A DNA stretch of 32,000 nt from Nitrosotalea sp. (lineage in GTDB: Archaea > Thermoproteota > Nitrososphaeria > Nitrososphaerales > Nitrosopumilaceae). Within the stretch, counting starts at the first letter, position 1. Each line of letters begins with the position of its first letter. Of the stretch, positions 1-28,963 are shown one piece after another. The notes below the pieces were generated by a model. That model searched no databases. It was not told the DNA's origin and was given only the letters and a program-made list of their open reading frames with translations. Made by a program: the position numbers and the translations under genes. The stretch lies in the NCBI GenBank assembly GCA_050749285.1, contig JBOGQX010000014.1, forward strand, positions 126,397-158,396, in the 5' to 3' direction.

Positions 1-630
1 AAAAAACAAGAGATTCAAGATTATATGGCAGAGATTAAAATGCTGTTTAAGATTAATACACAGATACGAGATTTTGATATCATCAGTGAAAAGTTGGAAA
101 GACATGGTACTTCAAAATATTCTGAGCTAGTAAATTACCTGAAGAACAAACGAGAAATTGAGCTAAAACAGGCACATCGATTGGCTAATAAACTAAAAAA
201 TAAACCATTGCCAAAAATAAAGAAAAAAGACATTGTTGAGCCAAAATTGAATAAAAGATTTCAGAAAGTTTTTACTAAATTAATTATCGAAATACAGCAA
301 AACATACCTGTGGTTATTAACGATGAGAAAAAAATCGAGGAACTTCATAAATTGAGAAAAGATTTCAAAAAACTTCGATATTCGATCGAGTTAACATCAG
401 ATAAGATCACTTCCACATCGGTAAAAAGTCTTAAAAAAATTCAAGATTCATTAGGTGAAGTCCATGATTGTGATATCATGTTGGATTATCTAAGAGAAGT
501 TAAGGGTCCTAATGAATTGTCAGAGGTCATAAGGAATGAAATCTTGGAAAGACGAGAAAAATATCAAAAATTTGTTCAGTCAATTCATGATGAAGAATCT
601 AATCCTGAAGATTTGATTTTACAATTCTAA
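1..630 (+). CDS. CHAD-domain protein, C-terminal part. The frame is open to base 1, so the true 5' end is probably outside the window.
   Basis: ORF track 25..630, with the same frame free of stops back to base 1. The protein is helical and K/E-rich. The block LHKLRKDFKKLRYSIEL matches the H..R...K.LRY..E signature I associate with CHAD domains. It lies tail-to-tail with ppx, with a 12-nt overlap. Confidence 0.6.
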   Translation, partial: KKQEIQDYMAEIKMLFKINTQIRDFDIISEKLERHGTSKYSELVNYLKNKREIELKQAHRLANKLKNKPLPKIKKKDIVEPKLNKRFQKVFTKLIIEIQQNIPVVINDEKKIEELHKLRKDFKKLRYSIELTSDKITSTSVKSLKKIQDSLGEVHDCDIMLDYLREVKGPNELSEVIRNEILERREKYQKFVQSIHDEESNPEDLILQF

Positions 631-2130
631 CACAGAACTCTGAACGCTCTGTTCATCAGGACGTAACATGCAAATTACATGTATATCAAAGGCGGTTCCG
701 AATTTATTGAGAGCATTTCTTAACAGCAATTTTGGAAGTAACTTTGATTGAATGATGTTAAGTTCCACTATTCCTTCTGTAAATCTCTTTAATTCAATCT
801 TTGATCTTGTTATGTCAAGGACTCCTAATAATGTAATAAGGGATGAAATTTTTTTGATTGTTGTCTTGTCCTGTTGTGATAAAATTGATCTATATCTTGA
901 AAATAACCAATCTGATGTTTTGATATGTCTAGTGTGAACTAGAGATAATCCTAAGACAAGCTGATCAGCATGACTGAGTGACATATCCTCATCCATAATT
1001 GAATAGAACAAGCTCTGAGGATTGTTATATGATAATTTCTCTAAAATCTTCTTTTCAGCAAATGAAAGAATTTGATATTCACGTTTATTAATTAATTTCG
1101 AAGAGATCAGAGAATTGATGAAACCCTTTGAATTCTGAAATATCTGGGAAGGTTTTTCAATCCCAATTGTTTCTCGAATTTGTTCAGCAGTGATATTTTT
1201 TGCATGATATACTTTTGGATTTTCAAGGAATATGGAAAGCGCTCCTTCTCTGAGTCCATGATTACTTATCCAAAGATTGTCAAAACCAAACTTTTCCATA
1301 ATTGTATTTATGACACAAGATCCTGCGACCATCGTTTCAGCTCTACCGGAACCTATTACTGGTATCTTTGAAATGTCATCAGATCGCATCCTAGATAGGC
1401 ATCTAGATATGTTACTGACAGATTTTGAAGTTATTTTATAATTGTGAATTTCATCTAGTGGATATTTTGTAATTTTATGATCATATCTTGCCAATGCACG
1501 TAGTGCACCACCAACGCCAACGAATTTTGTATCATTACCAAGATCAAGTTCTCTCTTGTCAGGTAACATATCCCAAACATATCGTCTCATATTCTTGTAA
1601 CTCTTCTGAGTAAACGTACCATCTTTAGCATCAAATTGCTGGGTTAATCTCAGGGCACCTAGCGGTAACGATATGACTTTTTTTATCTTGAATCTCTCTG
1701 CATGCACAATTTCTATACTACCTCCCCCTATGTCGAAAAACAGAGCATCTGGAACTTGAAGGGACTTTATTGCACCCACATACGAATACAAGGCTTCTTC
1801 TCTTTCAGTTAAGACTTTGAATCGAAATCCCATCTCTTTGTAAACCTCATCAAGAAATTCATCCTTATTTTCTGCTTCTCGTACAGCACTTGTGGCTAGT
1901 GGTAAAACAGATTTTATCGGTTCTAGCTGAATAATTTCTTTGAATAGCTTTAGTGTCTCAATAGCACGTAGCATTGGCTTTTTTCCTAGGACACCTTTTT
2001 CATCCATGTCCTCACCAAGTCTAACTTTCACCCCTTCTTGCCTGTAAACATCGAATGAATCATCATCTTTTACGTTGTAGGTTACTAATTTGGCTGAGTT
2101 GTATCCTAGATCAATTACTGAGATTTTCAA
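619..2130 (-). CDS. ppx: Exopolyphosphatase, Ppx/GppA family
   Basis: 503 aa. It carries actin-like ATPase fold motifs (ISVIDLGYNSAKL, FFDIGGGSIEIV, FVGVGGALRALAR) followed by a long helical C-terminal domain, which is the typical Ppx/GppA architecture. Confidence 0.88.
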   Translation of the reverse strand: MKISVIDLGYNSAKLVTYNVKDDDSFDVYRQEGVKVRLGEDMDEKGVLGKKPMLRAIETLKLFKEIIQLEPIKSVLPLATSAVREAENKDEFLDEVYKEMGFRFKVLTEREEALYSYVGAIKSLQVPDALFFDIGGGSIEIVHAERFKIKKVISLPLGALRLTQQFDAKDGTFTQKSYKNMRRYVWDMLPDKRELDLGNDTKFVGVGGALRALARYDHKITKYPLDEIHNYKITSKSVSNISRCLSRMRSDDISKIPVIGSGRAETMVAGSCVINTIMEKFGFDNLWISNHGLREGALSIFLENPKVYHAKNITAEQIRETIGIEKPSQIFQNSKGFINSLISSKLINKREYQILSFAEKKILEKLSYNNPQSLFYSIMDEDMSLSHADQLVLGLSLVHTRHIKTSDWLFSRYRSILSQQDKTTIKKISSLITLLGVLDITRSKIELKRFTEGIVELNIIQSKLLPKLLLRNALNKFGTAFDIHVICMLRPDEQSVQSSVLEL

Positions 2131-2222: not shown

Positions 2223-2720
2223 TCATTTTGCTATTCTCTTTAGGTGTTTTGGAGTAAGCAACCACCTCAGCTCACCTTGAATCTTTGGCAGAAACGATAT
2301 TGTTCTTATTCTAACTAATCCTGCCTTTTTCAAGTCAATTCTAGAGCTTCCACCCGATATTGCTTCCCCTACTAATTCGCTCAGATAGGGCTCATGACCC
2401 ACAATAAGTATGGAGGAATCTTGTTTTAAAGTAGAGAGTTTTTTATAAAGTTGTAATTTATTCCCTTCAGGTTTTAATTCGTCCAATTCACTCATTGGAT
2501 TTTTGCATTTTATATTATTGAAAATAATTTCCGCAGTCTGCTTAGAACGTAATAAGGGACTTGTAAAAATATAATCAAGTTCTATTCCGAGGGCCAAAAG
2601 TCCCTTTGCGATTTCTCCGACTTCCTCTTTTCCATCTACTGTTAAAGGTCTTTTCGAATCATCCCTAAATGTCGCAGAACGTCTGCCGGCATCACCATGT
2701 CGCAAGATAAACAAATCCAT
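2223..2720 (-). CDS. sixA: SixA-like histidine phosphatase (phosphohistidine phosphatase family)
   Basis: 165 aa. It has an N-terminal RHG motif (FILRHGDAGRR) and a downstream catalytic His block (LIVGHEPYLSEL). Size and layout fit SixA. It is co-directional with ppx and lies 92 nt upstream of it. Confidence 0.78.
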   Translation of the reverse strand: MDLFILRHGDAGRRSATFRDDSKRPLTVDGKEEVGEIAKGLLALGIELDYIFTSPLLRSKQTAEIIFNNIKCKNPMSELDELKPEGNKLQLYKKLSTLKQDSSILIVGHEPYLSELVGEAISGGSSRIDLKKAGLVRIRTISFLPKIQGELRWLLTPKHLKRIAK

Positions 2721-3009
2721 TAGGAACTATCTCTTTTCCATCTATTCAGGGAACTTCTAAGTTCTTCGGTTTTCCAAACCATATACAACAGTATGATTTA
2801 GGTGGATATGAGATATACGACCATAATTTCTTATCCTTCATATTATTATGAATAATATATAGATCATAGTCATAATTTCCTAAAGATAGAGACTTTACGT
2901 TATTAACCATGGTTCTGAGAAAGAAATCCAAATTAGAAAGAAAAATGGAAAACCTAAAAGTGGATATAGGGATTCAGTATATCGGGCTGGAGATGTGAAT
3001 CAAAGCAAA

Positions 3010-3681
3010 ATGGATGGCAAGCTAATTGTTGTGGAGGGCATCGATGGCTCAGGAAAGTCAACTCAGATTCATCTTTTAGAAAAATGGCTTGCATACAAGG
3101 GTATCAACGTCTTTAAATCAGAATGGAATTCCTCTGAAACTGTTAAGCAAATTACTTCCAAGGGAAAGAAAAAAGGGTTACTCACACCAACAACATTTAG
3201 TCTCTTACATGCCACTGATTTTGCAGACAGATATGAAAGAAATATTTTGCCTTTGCTTCGTGCTGGATATTTTGTCTTGGCTGATAGGTATGTCTTTACT
3301 GCCTTTGCAAGAGATGTTGTAAGAGGTTGTAATCCAGAATGGGTAAGAAAGGTTTATGATTTTGCCATAAAACCTGATCTAGCTTTCTATTTCAAGGTTC
3401 CAGTGGACATTGCGGTTGATAGAATACTTGTAGGTAGACCTAAGCTAAAGTATTACGAGGCTGGGATGGATTTGAATTTGAGTAACGATCCCTATGAAAG
3501 TTATAGAATTTTCCAAGGAAGAATAATTGAACAATATGACACGATGGCCGAGTCTGAGGGCTTTACGGTAATAGATGGCACATTAAGCATAGAAGAACAA
3601 CAAAAAATTGTTAGAAAACAAATCATGTCGCTTCTCCCACATAAAACATCAGTTAAAAAAATTAAAAAGGCATTAGCATGA
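3010..3681 (+). CDS. Thymidylate-kinase-like P-loop kinase, paralogue A (canonical P-loop)
   Basis: P-loop is LIVVEGIDGSGKSTQ and the DRY block is VLADRYVFTAFARDVVRG. The ORF track starts at GTG 2995. I prefer ATG 3010 (MDGKLIVVEG), which gives the usual short N-terminus. The stop overlaps the next start as ATGA at 3678-3681. Confidence 0.8.
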   Translation: MDGKLIVVEGIDGSGKSTQIHLLEKWLAYKGINVFKSEWNSSETVKQITSKGKKKGLLTPTTFSLLHATDFADRYERNILPLLRAGYFVLADRYVFTAFARDVVRGCNPEWVRKVYDFAIKPDLAFYFKVPVDIAVDRILVGRPKLKYYEAGMDLNLSNDPYESYRIFQGRIIEQYDTMAESEGFTVIDGTLSIEEQQKIVRKQIMSLLPHKTSVKKIKKALA

Positions 3682-4403
3682 AACAAAAATTAAATAATCA
3701 CAGTTCTAGAAAGGTGGAATTTTACGGTCATGGCATTGCACACTTGCAAGATGCAGAAGTAAAAGGTCGCCTTATCGTAATTGAAGGACCTGATGCATCT
3801 GGCCGAAGTACCCAAATTGAATTAATTACCGCAAAGCTGGAGGCAAATGGTCATGCTGTTCTAAATACCGGTCTTAAGAGATCTGAATTGGTAAGTCAAG
3901 GAATCTTGGAGGCAAAAAGAGATTACATTGGAAGAAAAACTCTAGCTTTGTATTATGCCGCAGACTTTGCTGATCAGTTTGAATACAAGATTATGCCAGC
4001 ACTTCAAGCAGGTTATGTTGTACTCGCAGACAGGTACATTTACACACTCATTGCACGAAATGTGGTGCGAGGACTAGACAGAAGCTGGTCTCATAACTTG
4101 TATGGCTTTGCCATAAAGCCAGATCTGGTCTTTTACATAGATGTTGAACCATCTGTTCTCGTACACAGGGTTTTTCAAAAGAATTCCTTCTTGGATTACT
4201 ACGAATCAGGAACAGATCTTGGTCTTTCAGACGATATGTACGAGTCATTTTTAATTTATCAAAACAAAATTTCAAAAGAATTTCATGCCATGCAAAAGCG
4301 GTATAACCTGATACCTATTGATGGAAATAGAACCATTCCTGAAATTAACAGGGATTTGCAGGGAAGAATAGACAGATTCCTAAACATGACGATGCATGCT
4401 TAA
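3678..4403 (+). CDS. Thymidylate-kinase-like P-loop kinase, paralogue B (P-loop Lys replaced by Arg, ~30-aa N-terminal extension)
   Basis: P-loop is LIVIEGPDASGRSTQ and the DRY block is VLADRYIYTLIARNVVRG. It is colinear with paralogue A throughout (AADFADQ / ATDFADR, AIKPDLVFY / AIKPDLAFY, DYYESGTDLGLSDD / KYYEAGMDLNLSND). Confidence 0.75.
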   Translation: MKQKLNNHSSRKVEFYGHGIAHLQDAEVKGRLIVIEGPDASGRSTQIELITAKLEANGHAVLNTGLKRSELVSQGILEAKRDYIGRKTLALYYAADFADQFEYKIMPALQAGYVVLADRYIYTLIARNVVRGLDRSWSHNLYGFAIKPDLVFYIDVEPSVLVHRVFQKNSFLDYYESGTDLGLSDDMYESFLIYQNKISKEFHAMQKRYNLIPIDGNRTIPEINRDLQGRIDRFLNMTMHA

Positions 4404-4542
4404 CCATCTTAGAACTAGATTATAGAAAATAATTTTTCCCTCTTTATTTTTAAATCAAGTTTGCAATATTCATGTTCACAAGCATTCTATCTTCATATCG
4501 ATCAGGATCATCTTTTTAGACTATGCGCATATAACAAAAATT

Positions 4543-4932
4543 ATGTATTCAGCTACCAAATCTGTTAGACTGAACAAACTTTGCAAATCAATACTAGATT
4601 GTAATGATAACATTCGTTCTGTGGAGATAATAGGAAAATCTGGAACTACACTTGAAAAAATTGGTTCCGATGAGACTATTACATTAAACAAAGAATCTCA
4701 CAATGTGCGTTTTAATGAATGCCTTCTCGACATTGCACTTGGAAAAGAATTTGAAGAATTTTATGGACCAATCCGATACCACTTCTCAAAAGACAAATCC
4801 GTGATGTTTAGTTTTCCATTTGACGAAAATTTTGTCTTTGTGGCAGCTACAAAAAATATTGGTCCAATATGGCTGGCAACAAAAATTGCTCGTATTATTA
4901 ATAAATATACGGCTGTTATCAAAAACACATAG
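4543..4932 (+). CDS. Uncharacterised 129-aa protein, paralogue of 5562..5957. Possibly a roadblock/LC7-like small alpha/beta domain, which is a weak guess.
   Basis: It aligns by eye with the 131-aa ORF on the opposite strand: LCK.I......I..V.I....G; ..EC.L......KE....FG; ....SF......F...A.TK; KIA..I.NY. Confidence 0.5.
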   Translation: MYSATKSVRLNKLCKSILDCNDNIRSVEIIGKSGTTLEKIGSDETITLNKESHNVRFNECLLDIALGKEFEEFYGPIRYHFSKDKSVMFSFPFDENFVFVAATKNIGPIWLATKIARIINKYTAVIKNT

Positions 4933-5014: not shown

Positions 5015-5149
5015 TTATTTTGTAGGATTGACAAATTTTATGTAAAGATCACTCGTTGTCCATTTTGCTGCAGGTAGACCTAAAAAAGGCTGTTGATAGT
5101 ATTTACCTTTAAAATCATTTTCTATTGTTTGTTTCTTTTTTACTTTCAT
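5015..5149 (-). CDS. Possible unannotated 44-codon ORF coupled to the upstream RAM-domain gene
   Basis: My own translation gives MKVKKKQTIENDFKGKYYQQPFLGLPAAKWTTSDLYIKFVNPTK. Its ATG overlaps the TAA stop of 5149..5397 (TAATG). It is too short for the supplied track, and there is no homology evidence. Confidence 0.2.
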   Translation of the reverse strand: MKVKKKQTIENDFKGKYYQQPFLGLPAAKWTTSDLYIKFVNPTK

Positions 5150-5397
5150 TATACAACAGCACACATAGATTTTCTCATGCACATTAAAGTAGTAACAGAT
5201 TCAATGTAGTCAGTAAAGATTTTCCATCGTATTACTTTTCTTAAAGATTCATAATCAATTGCTTCTACTTTAGCCAAGACATCAAATTCTCCAATGGTTC
5301 TGTGTATATTTTTAACCTCATTGATTTTTTCAAGATGTTCAATGACTCGGTCTTCCAAACCCGACCTACATTTTATGATAACGTGAGCAGTAGCCAT
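5149..5397 (-). CDS. Stand-alone Lrp/AsnC-type ligand-binding (RAM) domain protein with no HTH
   Basis: 82 aa. The sequence AHVIIKCRSGLEDRVIEHLEKINEVKNIHRTIGEFDVLAKVEA has the beta-alpha-beta-beta-alpha-beta pattern of AsnC/RAM domains (G.fD....v). Confidence 0.6.
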   Translation of the reverse strand: MATAHVIIKCRSGLEDRVIEHLEKINEVKNIHRTIGEFDVLAKVEAIDYESLRKVIRWKIFTDYIESVTTLMCMRKSMCAVV

Positions 5398-5561: not shown

Positions 5562-5957
5562 TTAGTTTGCTAGTCCAACATAGTTGAAAATTACTGCAGC
5601 TATTTTTTGTTGAAGTACTGTTGGGTTATTCACTGGTTTTGTTATGGCAAGCAGAAAATAATCATCAATTTGAAATGAAAAGGCAAGAATCTTTTCTCTT
5701 TGTATTATCGAACCTTTGACTTTGCCAAATTCATCATCATATTCTTTATGCATTGACGCCTGAAGTACACATTCCATGAAGAGCATTTCCCGCTTGTGTG
5801 CTGTAAGATCTCTATTTACCCCATCATCACGCGCTATCATATCTTCAACTCGACCTTTTTGATTTAAGATAGCAACTAGATCCATGTGGTCATCAATGCA
5901 AGAAATTTGTTTACAAATTAGATCTAGGGGCAGCCTGCGCTCAAGGGCTACTGTCAT
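5562..5957 (-). CDS. Uncharacterised 131-aa protein, paralogue of 4543..4932
   Basis: See 4543..4932. The conserved blocks are shared and the lengths are nearly equal. Confidence 0.5.
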   Translation of the reverse strand: MTVALERRLPLDLICKQISCIDDHMDLVAILNQKGRVEDMIARDDGVNRDLTAHKREMLFMECVLQASMHKEYDDEFGKVKGSIIQREKILAFSFQIDDYFLLAITKPVNNPTVLQQKIAAVIFNYVGLAN

Positions 5958-8195: not shown

Positions 8196-9254
8196 TTACA
8201 AAAAGACTTTCTGCGAAATGCCTTTTATCCAGTCAAGGTCCTTTTCGTTTTTTACTAATGTAGATATTTTTATCACATCCCGGACATCCCTACTCTTTAT
8301 ATCATGCCAAACAAAATTAACTATTTTTTTTGAGAGATCCAGACTTATTGCTTGTTTTTGAAGGATGAATTTGGTTATTTCTAAGAATTGTTCGTATGTG
8401 TATTCCTTGAATCTAACACGGAGAAACCTTGAGAGTAATTTTTTACTAAATCCTGATACGTTATTGCATGAGCCAATTATCCAAGTCTTCATCTCTTTGG
8501 TTCTTGTCCTTCCATACTTGGTCTCTGATAGCTGGCCTGTTTGCATGAAACTAAATAGCGCAGCCAAATCCTTTTGATTCATTTCCTCCATCTCGTCTAT
8601 GATCAGATATCGAATATCATAAGAAAACAGAAAATCGGTAAGTCCTGCACGGGTTATGTTTGCTCCATCCAAAAAGAATGCCCCTGAAAGTTTTTCCATC
8701 TCCATCTGAAAAAGGGTCTTTGCACTTGCAGGAGGACCCACAAGTAAAACATGCACTGGGTTTGGCGAAGAAATTACTCGGTTTAGTAGTTCTTTTACCT
8801 CGTGATACCCTACTATGCTGGCAAACAAATCATTTGGGATGACCAATTCTCCTGGGAGTTCTTTTGCAGTCCTTAGCTCCAGGCTATGTTGAAGTATCTT
8901 TTTGACGTATTCCCTGTTTACAAGATGGTATTCCGTATGCTTGTTCGACTTGTACTTTATCGTAACTAGGCCTAATCTGAGCAATCGCTGGACGTGAAAA
9001 TAGCTATTCGAGACATCATGCCACTCCCATCCGATTGAGGCAATTGCATGACCATTGCTGCAAGTCCATTGGTCAGGAATTTCCTCATTTTCTGTTAGAT
9101 CAGAATTTTTTTGAATTTGAAATTTTTCTCCGCAATAAAAACAACTTTTTTGTTTTCCTTTTGTTTTTTCAAACTCAATTGCATTGTGTAAGACATCCAA
9201 AAGACCCTTTTCTTCTATAACTTCTGTTACCATAAAGCTACCTTTTTTTATCAC
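8196..9254 (-). CDS. AAA+ ATPase (RuvB/clamp-loader-like core) with an N-terminal zinc-ribbon and a probable winged-helix segment
   Basis: Candidate zinc site CFYCGEKF...WTCSNGH. The Walker A is atypical (LLVGPPASAKT), Walker B is YLIIDEMEEM, the sensor-1-like block is IIGSCN, and the RuvB/RFC-like block is LLSRFLRVRF. Confidence 0.6.
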   Translation of the reverse strand: MIKKGSFMVTEVIEEKGLLDVLHNAIEFEKTKGKQKSCFYCGEKFQIQKNSDLTENEEIPDQWTCSNGHAIASIGWEWHDVSNSYFHVQRLLRLGLVTIKYKSNKHTEYHLVNREYVKKILQHSLELRTAKELPGELVIPNDLFASIVGYHEVKELLNRVISSPNPVHVLLVGPPASAKTLFQMEMEKLSGAFFLDGANITRAGLTDFLFSYDIRYLIIDEMEEMNQKDLAALFSFMQTGQLSETKYGRTRTKEMKTWIIGSCNNVSGFSKKLLSRFLRVRFKEYTYEQFLEITKFILQKQAISLDLSKKIVNFVWHDIKSRDVRDVIKISTLVKNEKDLDWIKGISQKVFL

Positions 9255-26554: not shown

Positions 26555-27529
26555 TTGACTAAATTCATCCGACGCCTACAGAAAATTGGCAGTAGTATGC
26601 TGGTCTCGTTACCAATTGAATGGGTTGAAGCAAACAAGCTTGAAAAAAGTGATGAGGTCGAGATTGAGACTGGAACCAACAGTGTTTCTATCACCCCTAC
26701 TGGAGGGAGCAAGCCTACAAAAGAGGTCACAATTGGATATCCCGTTTCAAAGGAGGAAAACATCAGCGCTGATGTTACGGGAGCCTATCTTCTTGGCTAT
26801 GATATAATCAAGATAAAAGGCAAGTCTCCCATTTCAATTGAAGACAGAGAAAGGATTCGCGGACTGATGCGACGATTGGTTGGAATGGAGATTGTAGATG
26901 AAGACGCGTCCAACGTTAATGTCCAATTTCTTTTGGATGCCACAACGCTTAGCCCAGACAAGATCTTAAAACGAATGAGCTCAATAGCGCTTGGACTGTT
27001 TCGTGATACAATAAACTCACTTACCTCCGAAGACAAAACTGTCTTGCAGACAATTCCAAACAGGGATGATGAAATAGACAGACAATATTTTTTGCTTGTG
27101 CGGTTGATCCGAAGTGCATTAGTGGACAAGAAACTTGCAACAGCATTAAACCTTGGAAACATTGACATCTTGGATTATAGAATTGCAGCAAACTTGCTTG
27201 AGACCGCAGGTGATACTATTGTTGAGCTTGCAAATTACATTCAAGATCTATCATCTACAAAAACGGATCTACAAAGATTTCACACCATGGCCACAGAAAT
27301 TGAAAACATCCATGAGAAAGCAATCACATCATTCATTGAGAACAATAGATTGCTTGCAATTGAGGCCATAAAATTACAACGAAGTTATCAAAAGAAGGTC
27401 TCTGATATTCGTTCCTCTCTTGAACCAAAGAAGCAGATATCGACACAACTAGATCTTGTTTATACACTTGAAAAGCTTGCAAGATGTTGGGCGGATGTTG
27501 CTGATCTAGTAAAGCCAGTCTATACATGA
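26555..27529 (+). CDS. phoU: PhoU-family phosphate-uptake regulator with an N-terminal AbrB/SpoVT-type DNA-binding domain
   Basis: [33 protein letters not shown] is the AbrB swapped-hairpin pattern. It is followed by two PhoU-like helical repeats ([13 protein letters not shown] and a later repeat). Confidence 0.78.
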
Positions 27530-28032
27530 TACTTTTTTTTCATTGCATATGTAAGTACTGCACAGATTGTCTTTGAATCAATAATTTTTCCTGATAAAAT
27601 CATTTTCAGTACTTTTTTCAAGTCAATCTTTACTACTGAAATTATCTCATCCTCGTCTAGATTCAAGCTAGATTTTTTTTTGATTCCAGATGCCAAAAAG
27701 CAATGGATTACTTCTGTGTTGTAGCCTATGGAAGGATAGTATTTCACAAGAGGCGTCATTTTTCGTGCCTCATAGCCTGTTTCCTCTTCGAGTTCCCTAA
27801 AGGCGCAGTGTAGTGGGCTCTCACCTCTTTCAAGTGTTCCTGCAGGAATTTCAAGTACAAAACCATGTGGAAATCTATGCTGTTTGACAAGCAATATCTT
27901 ACCATTCTCGATGGCAAGAACAGCCGCAGCACCACGATGTTCTATTATTTCTCTAGTAACTTTGCGTTTGTTAAGTGATAGTGTGTAAACACTTAACGAA
28001 AGAACCTTTCCTTCAAAAATTTTCTTTCTCAT
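27520..28032 (-). CDS. NUDIX hydrolase (ADP-ribose pyrophosphatase-like)
   Basis: The Nudix box is [23 protein letters not shown]. The start is either Met 28032 ([10 protein letters not shown]) or Met 28074. The latter would overlap the upstream Lrp gene by 17 nt. Confidence 0.8.
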
Positions 28033-28057
28033 GATAAAATCTTGATTTTTGCATATG

Positions 28058-28963
28058 TTATGAATGTATCCCATACATTAGGTGCAGTTTTTTAGATTTT
28101 TTTGTTTGCTCGATTGCATCTTTGACCCACTTTTGAGGAAATGTAATAGTCTTTGGTATGAAAAGATCCGCAGTTTTTATTCCTTCTACATCTTGAACTT
28201 TCTGAATGATATCATCAATCTTGAAGAGATTGTCACTATACATAAAGAGAACAATATAGCTCATGTGAACAAATGGTCTTTGCAAAAAGTATACAGAGAA
28301 TTCTTTTTTAAGTTTTTGGAGAGTTTTATCAATATCTCCTGGTACTGCAACAAGTATTGTAAAAGGAATGTATCCTCCCATCTCTCGTGGATTGTAAATC
28401 AAAGTAAATTGTATTGCTTCGTCATTTTGCAATTTTTCAATTGATCTAGCTACTGTCTTTGTTGAAAAATCAGACAGCTTGGCTATCTCTTCTATCTTTA
28501 ACCTAGGATCTTTTAATAATATGTCGATTATTTCGATATCAGTTTTAGTGAGGTCTGATCTTATTTCCGGATTTTTTGCTTCAAATATACTTAGCACTCT
28601 AACATCTTTTAGAAGATTTTTCGCAAGCTCCATCTTTTGTACTGGATCATCTTTTACTACAATACTACATACCGTTACTCCACCCACACAAGGTACTACA
28701 AAAAATGGTTCTCCAACCAATCTTATCTTGTTTAAAATATCATCAAGCTCTTTTCCTGTGACCACAAAATAGAGAACACTGTATCCTAGTACCGGAGGTT
28801 CAATTTTTAAAGCAAATTCTCCAATGATCTTTTTTTCCATCATTTTTTGAATTCTAGACCGTATACTTACGCCAGAAATTCCAATCTCTTTGCCGATTTG
28901 TCTATCTGGGGTCCTACAATTGTCTACTAGATGAGATAGAATCTGCATATCTAATTTGTCCAT
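28058..28963 (-). CDS. Tandem (internally duplicated) Lrp/AsnC-family transcriptional regulator
   Basis: There are two HTH_AsnC units, each followed by a RAM-like segment: [37 protein letters not shown] and [37 protein letters not shown]. Confidence 0.75.

Follow-up and report, generated by a model that had tools for sequence, protein, structure and literature searches.

A tandem of thymidylate-kinase-like genes beside ppx is predicted to encode a polyphosphate kinase of family 3 (PPK3) in a Nitrosotalea-clade archaeon

Introduction

What is the function of two adjacent genes of the type annotated as thymidylate (dTMP) kinase when they lie beside the exopolyphosphatase gene ppx? This question is raised by a stretch of 32,000 nucleotides (nt) from Nitrosotalea sp. 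(family Nitrosotaleaceae according to NCBI), namely positions 126,397 to 158,396 of contig JBOGQX010000014.1 in assembly GCA_050749285.1, which is referred to below as the window. An earlier note on this DNA presented the two open reading frames (ORFs), here called A and B, as a candidate two-subunit polyphosphate kinase. Homology, phylogeny, and synteny support this proposal, and A and B are very probably the subunits of a PPK3, a polyphosphate kinase of family 3, from a Nitrosotalea-clade ammonia-oxidizing archaeon, with the qualification that the subunits do not appear to be equivalent: one would be catalytic (cPPK3), and the other would be a noncatalytic partner (rPPK3).

The note had also referred to a report on Sulfolobus acidocaldarius, and this report exists: the heteromeric polyphosphate kinase SaPPK3 was described by Hofmann et al. 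(J Biol Chem 2026, PMC12995831; preprint 10.1101/2024.08.28.610084). The ppx operon of S. acidocaldarius, sixA-ppx-saci_2019-saci_2020-CHAD, encodes SaPPK3, which is formed by Saci_2019 and Saci_2020, two proteins annotated as thymidylate kinases and encoded beside ppx (PMC12995831). [quoted passage not shown] The true dTMP kinase of S. acidocaldarius is encoded by a separate gene, saci_0893, and multiple dTMP kinase paralogues are present in all PPK3 genomes (PMC12995831). PPK3 was also predicted in Nitrososphaeraceae, and every predicted operon contained both subunits (PMC12995831). The family and its prediction for ammonia-oxidizing archaea have therefore already been published (2024-2026), and the window pair adds a member. 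New here are the signature of the r subunit (a Walker-A arginine, lost basic residues of the LID, and an FYGxGIP motif) and the occurrence of the family in ammonia-oxidizing archaea of the Nitrosopumilaceae type and in at least 12 bacterial phyla. Searches of the literature on polyP or tmk in ammonia-oxidizing archaea gave nothing useful.

Results

The kinase gene pair

The features of the pair are as follows.

2995..3681, + strand: ORF A, predicted cPPK3, catalytic subunit; 228 amino acids, GTG start; relatives are annotated as dTMP kinase
3678..4403, + strand: ORF B, predicted rPPK3, noncatalytic partner subunit; 241 amino acids
3678..3681, + strand: ATGA overlap of the cPPK3 stop and the rPPK3 start, read directly from the sequence

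The two colinear P-loop kinase ORFs of the Tmk type and their ATGA overlap, both described in the earlier note, were found as listed. The alignment of A with B spans 214 residues with one gap at 41% identity (E 7e-55), and by this alignment they are paralogues far beyond chance. Both match PF02223 (Thymidylate_kin), A with an E-value of 1.9e-22 (80.3 bits) and B with an E-value of 4.4e-20 (72.6 bits) at a cut-off of 27. Neither matches the PPK2 model PF03976 at E ≤ 0.01, and membership of A or B in PPK2 was rejected on this ground; TIGR03708 gave only a 15.9-bit match, at the level of the P-loop. The segment following the DRY motif, which had been given as T-[AL]-[FI]-A-R-[DN]-V-V-R-G, is exact in both proteins: residues 96-111 of A are ADRYVFTAFARDVVRG, containing TAFARDVVRG, and residues 117-132 of B are ADRYIYTLIARNVVRG, containing TLIARNVVRG.

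ORF A has an alternative in-frame ATG at 3010, and the GTG start matches the N-terminal length of the N. devaniterrae orthologue. A is 88-90% identical to the matching region in two Nitrosotalea-clade metagenome-assembled genomes (MAGs); for B, the identity is 95% to metagenome proteins and 80% to the protein of N. devaniterrae. For the comparisons below, counts were taken over 83 loci, 80 of them the best loci (57-90% identical to A) of a scan of species-representative genomes. A 4-nt start/stop overlap is available in 31/77 related pairs, and a further 35 pairs lie within −30 to +20 nt. The ATGA arrangement of the window is compatible with translational coupling of the two genes.

Assignment of the subunits

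A and B were assigned to subunit types with two hidden Markov models (HMMs), one c-type and one r-type, which were built separately from the 80 related loci with Sulfolobus and the window left out. The c and r labels were set by gene position, and the loci L055 and L080, whose pairs had been listed in reverse order, were re-labelled by type. The c-type and r-type HMM scores were 380 and 237 bits for A, 201 and 322 bits for B, 265 and 198 bits for Saci_2019, and 88 and 138 bits for Saci_2020. In a neighbor-joining tree of 160 sequences, the bipartition between c and r was recovered in 200/200 bootstraps and places A together with Saci_2019 and B together with Saci_2020; G65, Y93, Q100, and D173 are r-type states common to B and Saci_2020. 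Based on these cross-scores and this bipartition, A is the cPPK3 orthologue and B is the rPPK3 orthologue, and the two types go back to a single ancient duplication. The comparison with the Sulfolobus pair that had been suggested in the earlier note thus yields one subunit of each type.

The best sequence match of A is ST1543/STK_15430 of Sulfurisphaera tokodaii (PDB accession numbers 2plr, 4nzy, 4rzx, and 5h70), which was deposited as a dTMP kinase and is now regarded as a cPPK3 homologue. A matches 2plr/5h70 with an E-value of 9.8e-65 over residues 8-214, while the best canonical Tmk reaches 4.6e-15 and all others are weaker; B matches 2plr/5h70 with an E-value of 1e-37. The AlphaFold2 model of the B monomer (pLDDT [predicted local distance difference test] score 88.7, predicted template modeling [pTM] score 0.87) has a Tmk fold, and its best structural match is likewise ST1543 (5h70_A; template modeling score 0.93 normalized to the target, root mean square deviation 1.9 Å). 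The crystal structure of ST1543 is of the c subunit alone, and no structure of an r subunit or of the heteromer was found in the PDB copy searched.

Active site of the predicted catalytic subunit

The key residues of A are the Walker A motif (G15-IDGSGK21-ST), EWNSS at 43-47, the basic run K56-GKKK60, R79, D97-R98-Y99, R106 and R110, and R143, R148, and K152 of the LID. The Walker A Lys, the DRX motif, and the residues of the basic cleft and the LID (K21, D97-R98-Y99, K58, R79, R106, R110, R143, R148, and K152) are all present. The listed catalytic and basic positions of A are each conserved in 74-77 of the 77 c-type subunits, the K56-K60 run less so. Numbered on A, 60 positions are at least 95% conserved in the c-type, and the catalytic and basic ones among them that were checked are all present.

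The segments that bind dTMP in ordinary dTMP kinases are altered. When A is aligned to the Plasmodium falciparum TMK, FPNR corresponds to EWNS, the Phe of LLFSA to His72, and YSGVAYS to FTAFARD. The thymine-stacking Phe is replaced by His in A and by Tyr in B, and the S-x-x-A-Y-Q of canonical Tmks is T-A-F-A-R-D in A and T-x-x-A-R-[DN] across the pair. The dTMP segment TREPGG/FPxR of textbook Tmks is replaced by EWNSS in A and by GLKRS in B. The conserved dTMP-binding residues of dTMP kinases are thus replaced in A as far as the alignment goes, and the view that neither protein looks like an ordinary dTMP kinase gains from this replacement and from the far closer match of A to the cPPK3 structure. 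Together with the retained basic residues, the replaced dTMP residues fit the published model, in which a basic polyP cleft lies at the former dTMP site (PMC12995831).

Altered site and N-terminal extension of the predicted partner subunit

The Walker A motif of B is G37-PDASGR43-ST (GPDASGRST), in which Arg replaces the Walker-A Lys. This replacement is found in 76/77 r-type subunits (after the two pairs had been re-labelled), and all 120 of 120 close homologues of B have GxDxSGR[ST] plus DRY. The basic residues of the LID are also lost, R148 and K152 of the c-type being N169 and D173 in B; R148 is replaced in 66/77 r-type subunits, and K152 is Asp in 61/77. The Walker-A replacement and the loss of the LID basic residues suggest that B is noncatalytic. 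Since A keeps the catalytic residues while B has these two family-wide defects of the catalytic site, A would catalyze the reaction and B would serve as its noncatalytic partner.

The published account explains the inactivity of rPPK3 by the replacement of the arginine of the DRX motif, and the residues of the polyP cleft are not conserved in rPPK3s (PMC12995831). B does not have the first of these hallmarks: it retains D118-R119-Y120 as well as R127 and R131, and the DRX Arg is kept in 76/77 r-type subunits. DGY and a Trp at the R127 position were found in 4/4 Sulfolobaceae r subunits examined, and the DRX Arg is lost only there; in the sequences compared, its loss is a mark of the Sulfolobaceae r subunits and not of the family. 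The Sulfolobaceae r subunits are without D39, R68, R119, R127, and E176. Saci_2020 is atypical at the Walker-A position as well: a Walker-A Arg is present in 3/4 Sulfolobaceae r subunits, with GSGR[ST] in L083-L085 (M. sedula, S. tokodaii, and another of the Sulfolobaceae type), and Saci_2020 (L001, 5621-6253), which has GIMSSGKTT with a Lys, is the exception. The identity of B to Saci_2020 is only 32%. DRY, the P-loop Asp, R127, and E176 are all kept in B, which also carries the Walker-A Arg and an N-terminal FYGxGIP extension, whereas Saci_2020 has DGY, a Trp at the R127 position, an unusual Walker-A Lys, and no extension.

The N-terminal extension of B comprises 22 residues relative to A and carries FYGHGI at residues 15-20; in the model it has a pLDDT of approximately 90. 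The motif [RK]-F-Y-G-x-G-[IL]-P is present in 61/76 r subunits and in 0/76 c subunits, and it is absent from the Sulfolobaceae r subunits. In the mainstream r subunits, 37 positions are at least 95% conserved, including D39, R43, R68, D118-R119-Y120, R127, R131, R164, E176, and D180. Basic residues have been gained in the r-type at R68, at position 67 (K/R), and at the position of P65 of the c-type (R/K/H). The mean identity among Nitrososphaerota is 0.69 for r versus 0.73 for c, while in Sulfolobaceae r is relaxed (0.51 versus 0.71 for c). In the main texts of PMC12995831 and of the preprint, neither the Walker-A Arg nor the FYGxGIP extension is mentioned.

Synteny, fusions, and distribution

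The c and r genes form a tandem in this order on one strand in 79/83 loci, 77 of them directly and two with the r gene masked by Ns. The other apparent c singles are two loci cut by contig ends and two c-only contigs. The latter have sixA-ppx-cPPK3 without r (L007, 3500-4240; L014, 4246-4938), are the only such loci among the 83, and both come from MAG GS_HAYS_MAG_00077, which apparently carries two sixA-ppx-c copies without rPPK3.

The co-occurrence of the pair with ppx and CHAD, which the earlier note had proposed to profile, extends well beyond the window: within 6 kb, PPX was found in 57/83 loci (58 before de-duplication against kinase hits), SixA in 37/83, and CHAD in 34/83, and at least one of the three in 63/83 loci from two domains of life. 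The ppx/sixA/CHAD context recurs in S. acidocaldarius and in N. devaniterrae, where the layout is CHAD> ppx< sixA< tmkA> tmkB>, preceded by pst/phoU/PHO4 genes. In 14 bacterial loci (L020-L054, e.g., L035, 7412-8410), mostly of Verrucomicrobiota, a gene for a sugar kinase of the ROK family directly follows the r gene and often overlaps it; this kinase may be a candidate polyphosphate glucokinase coupled to PPK3. A PPK2 gene adjoins the PPK3 pair in 8 other bacterial loci (e.g., L071, 4909-5829). Further neighbors are a Pst permease (7 loci) and a MazE-PhoU regulator (6 loci, all archaeal and right beside the PPK3 cluster).

Gene fusions were found in metagenomes. The c and r proteins are fused to each other (c-r) and, in P0249, P0270, and P0289 (650-696 amino acids), additionally to domain III (HD) of Ppx/GppA (c-r-Ppx); these fusions provide independent "Rosetta stone" support for a physical association of the subunits and for a role in polyP metabolism. 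P0366 combines an inorganic pyrophosphatase with a Tmk-like domain, and P0368, P0376, and P0386 are giants of 1000-1200 amino acids with the order MFS transporter, Tmk-like domain, and APH/DUF2252.

The archaea among the best 80 loci are Nitrosotalea, Nitrosotenuis, Nitrosopumilus, Nitrosocosmicus, and Nitrososphaera. The bacteria among them comprise 61 genomes of at least 12 phyla, which include Verrucomicrobiota, Acidobacteriota, Armatimonadota, Chloroflexota, Planctomycetota, Gemmatimonadota, Sumerlaeota, Dormiibacterota, and others. Even the 80th locus shares 62% identity with A, and therefore the true number of loci is larger than these best 80; an exhaustive search of representatives gave 153 clusters at 50% identity with E ≤ 1e-30. 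A set of 567 tblastn-confirmed relatives was not used as a PPK3 count; one of the patterns behind it, EG[IL]DGSGK, is likely to pick up canonical Tmks too. The narrower distribution in the published study is probably due to its dataset, which consisted of GenBank genomes of November 2023 (PMC12995831).

Neighboring genes and the remainder of the window

The sixA-ppx genes divergent from the kinase pair and the adjoining CHAD gene, as described in the earlier note, are identified by their Pfam and TIGR matches.

25..630, + strand: CHAD-domain protein (polyP-granule associated); PF05235, E 4.8e-16, profile positions 93-227 only
619..2130, − strand: ppx exopolyphosphatase; PF02541, E 8.5e-55; TIGR03706, E 2.7e-77, below the cut-off of the model
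2223..2720, − strand: sixA-type histidine phosphatase; TIGR00249, E 4.7e-26, 91.5 bits at a cut-off of 74.5; divergent from the kinase pair
2818..2878, strand not assigned: conserved intergenic block in the divergent spacer between sixA and cPPK3; CGACCATAATTTC...TTCATA...ATATATAGATCATAGTCAT

All three genes lie within 3 kb of ORF A. The CHAD gene converges on ppx, and the 3' ends of the two overlap by 12 nt. Because PF05235 is matched only at positions 93-227, the CHAD gene probably starts to the left of the window, its 5' end being lost at the edge; the N. devaniterrae orthologue has 268 amino acids. The block of approximately 60 nt at 2818-2878 is near-invariant in four Nitrosotalea-clade loci while the flanking spacer diverges, and it is a candidate for a promoter common to both sides or for the site of a phosphate regulator. 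Oligo-T tracts at 4433-4451 (TTTTT, then TTTATTTTT), 30-48 nt past the rPPK3 stop codon, look like an archaeal intrinsic terminator at the end of the two-gene unit.

All ORFs of at least 100 amino acids from 8196 rightwards and eight genes of the left end were scanned against Pfam. Among these larger ORFs, no PPK1, no PPK2, and no further Tmk-like ORF was found, in agreement with the earlier reading that no PPK1 or PPK2 is visible in the window. The GC content is 33-40%, and the remainder of the window holds common housekeeping genes of archaea (those for FttA/aCPSF1, for a proteasome subunit, for the archaeal CoA pathway, and similar). A gene resembling MazE-PhoU phosphate-uptake regulators is located at 26555-27529 (+), approximately 22 kb away from the PPK3 locus, with a NUDIX hydrolase (27520-28074, −) and a double helix-turn-helix regulator of the AsnC type (28058-28963, −) beside it; NUDIX is in the published list of PPK-associated genes (PMC12995831). 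Downstream of the pair, two small proteins of approximately 130 amino acids (4543-4932, +; 5562-5957, −) flank a gene with an AsnC-type ligand domain (5149-5397). One of the two weakly matches DUF6659, and the other resembles a paralogue by eye; a DUF6659 gene is also located near the N. devaniterrae PPK3 locus (L002, right end). The 352-amino-acid protein at 8196-9254 (−) has a weak match to MCM P-loop/AAA_5 and a Cys-rich N-terminal segment and is unrelated to the pair.

Discussion

Comparison with characterized kinases

Similar to the SaPPK3 genes, the genes of the window are adjacent Tmk-fold paralogues in the order c then r, with overlapping ends and in the company of sixA, ppx, and CHAD. 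A is approximately 50% identical to Saci_2019 and shares all of its catalytic motifs, and B belongs to the same r clade as Saci_2020. The gene arrangement is different: sixA-ppx is divergent in the window and CHAD lies beyond ppx, whereas the five Sulfolobus genes are all co-directional.

The two-domain class II PPK2 of Pseudomonas aeruginosa (PA3455) offers another parallel, in that an active P-loop module is joined to an inactive paralogous module that serves oligomerization or activation, and polyP-driven nucleotide phosphorylation is preferred; the natural c-r fusions of PPK3 mimic this two-domain architecture. On the other hand, class II PPK2 belongs to another family, whose PF03976 model finds neither A nor B, the sites for nucleotide and polyP have changed places, and ADP, not AMP, is the substrate (PMC12995831).

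Proposed mechanism

The assignment of the pair to PPK3 draws on homology and synteny, on the subunit type and motif states of the proteins, and on their fold, and the enzymatic properties are expected by analogy with the orthologues. A would act as a Tmk-fold P-loop kinase with ATP/ADP in the usual nucleotide site and with the dTMP pocket rebuilt as a basic polyP cleft (K56-K60, R79, R106, R110, R143, R148, and K152), and it would catalyze the reversible reaction ATP + polyP(n) <-> ADP + polyP(n+1). For the Sulfolobus enzyme, the equilibrium lies strongly toward ATP from ADP and polyP, and the direction of the flux in vivo would be predicted from it. B would be produced from the same transcript as A via the overlapping stop and start, which would couple the two genes, and would assemble with A, probably with the stoichiometry of an α2β2 tetramer, and raise its activity. 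With the divergent sixA-ppx and the CHAD gene, the locus would form a module for the storage and mobilization of polyP. The earlier note had suggested that the pair supplies the missing polyP-synthesis step of this lineage. Membership in the PPK3 family supports one part of this suggestion; against the other part, the characterized enzyme favors ATP formation, and Nitrososphaeraceae had already been named (PMC12995831).

Alternative explanations

Several observations weigh against the assignment to PPK3 and have to be set against the evidence above. TIGR00041, the NCBIfam model for dTMP kinase, is passed, albeit narrowly (A, 88.3 bits; B, 84.9 bits; cut-off, 83.25); ST1543 was called an unusual thymidylate kinase by Biswas et al. 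2017, as cited in the preprint (10.1101/2024.08.28.610084); and the biochemistry of PPK3 comes from the Sulfolobus orthologues alone. The first could be taken to mean that A and B are ordinary or merely duplicated dTMP kinases whose adjacency to ppx is a coincidence, as could the names given to the relatives by their sources, the match to PF02223, and the fact that no other tmk was seen in the scan of the 32-kb window. A and B do share the fold, the P-loop, the DRY motif, and the lid with canonical Tmks and pass the family thresholds. The dTMP-recognition residues, including the thymine-stacking Phe and the S-x-x-A-Y-Q segment, are replaced, and the E-values of A to canonical Tmks are approximately 50 orders of magnitude weaker than that to the cPPK3 structure; moreover, dTMP kinase activity is absent from the orthologue Saci_2019 and resides in the separate Saci_0893 (PMC12995831). 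The recurrence of the ppx/sixA/CHAD link in 63/83 loci and two domains also speaks against coincidence, and we consider this explanation scarcely credible. Nearly as improbable is that A is a polyP-independent kinase of a nucleotide or small molecule, with a new substrate, that is co-regulated with phosphate genes. Tmk-like domains closely related to B that are fused to MFS transporters and APH/DUF2252 do indicate that the fold is used in other contexts, but these are single-domain fusions with scores below those of the c/r pair, and polyP/PPi chemistry is indicated by the fusions that involve Ppx domain III and pyrophosphatase. The identity of approximately 50% to a characterized cPPK3 and the shared conserved basic residues also oppose it.

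The remaining point against a simple transfer of the Sulfolobus findings concerns B, which keeps the DRX Arg, the P-loop Asp, R127, and E176, all lost by Saci_2020. Because B keeps the very feature whose loss was used to explain the inactivity of Saci_2020, its role may differ from that of Saci_2020, and its retained site together with the extension suggests that B may do more, e.g., bind a ligand. A possible, although less probable, version of PPK3 is accordingly one in which the partner is functionally engaged: the site of B (Arg43, Arg68, DRY, and R127/R131) and FYGxGIP would bind a phosphate ligand, either a polyP chain or ADP/ATP as a sensor of energy charge, and gate or feed A, and B might even keep some catalysis. 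Consistent with this are the 37 r positions whose conservation extends over archaea and more than 12 bacterial phyla, five of which the Sulfolobaceae r subunits have lost, the conservation of r in Nitrososphaerota at nearly the level of c in contrast to the relaxed r of Sulfolobaceae, the conserved basic gains of r, and the FYGxGIP motif, which is confined to r subunits and confidently modeled in B. On the other hand, a Walker-A Lys-to-Arg replacement usually abolishes phosphoryl transfer in P-loop kinases, and the basic residues of the LID are lost. Conservation could also reflect constraints of the interface or the fold alone, and the polyP-cleft residues are not conserved in rPPK3s (PMC12995831). 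We therefore suggest only tentatively that the enzyme of Sulfolobus may be atypical and degenerate as a model for the family. The partner of mainstream PPK3, to which the window, other Nitrososphaerota, and bacteria of at least 12 phyla belong, may be a conserved ligand-binding pseudokinase that controls the catalytic subunit, with the P-loop Lys universally replaced by Arg, the DRY and lid arginines kept, and FYGxGIP as an N-terminal element of its own. If this is true, PPK3 would be regulated by a mechanism other than that of the inactive oligomerization scaffold described for Saci_2020.

Implications

The comparison of the r subunits indicates that the published account of partner inactivity rests on a change specific to Sulfolobaceae, and that the family-wide signature of the r subunit is the Walker-A Lys-to-Arg replacement in a site that is otherwise preserved. 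PPK3 is also far more common in uncultured bacteria than "a few," which affects the annotation of polyP metabolism in metagenomes. For the organism itself, the genes of this locus predict that the acid-soil ammonia oxidizers of the Nitrosotalea clade carry a PPK3 route between ATP and polyphosphate, encoded by genes that are annotated only as "dTMP kinase" in relatives; this route bears on how oligotrophic nitrifiers buffer phosphate and energy.

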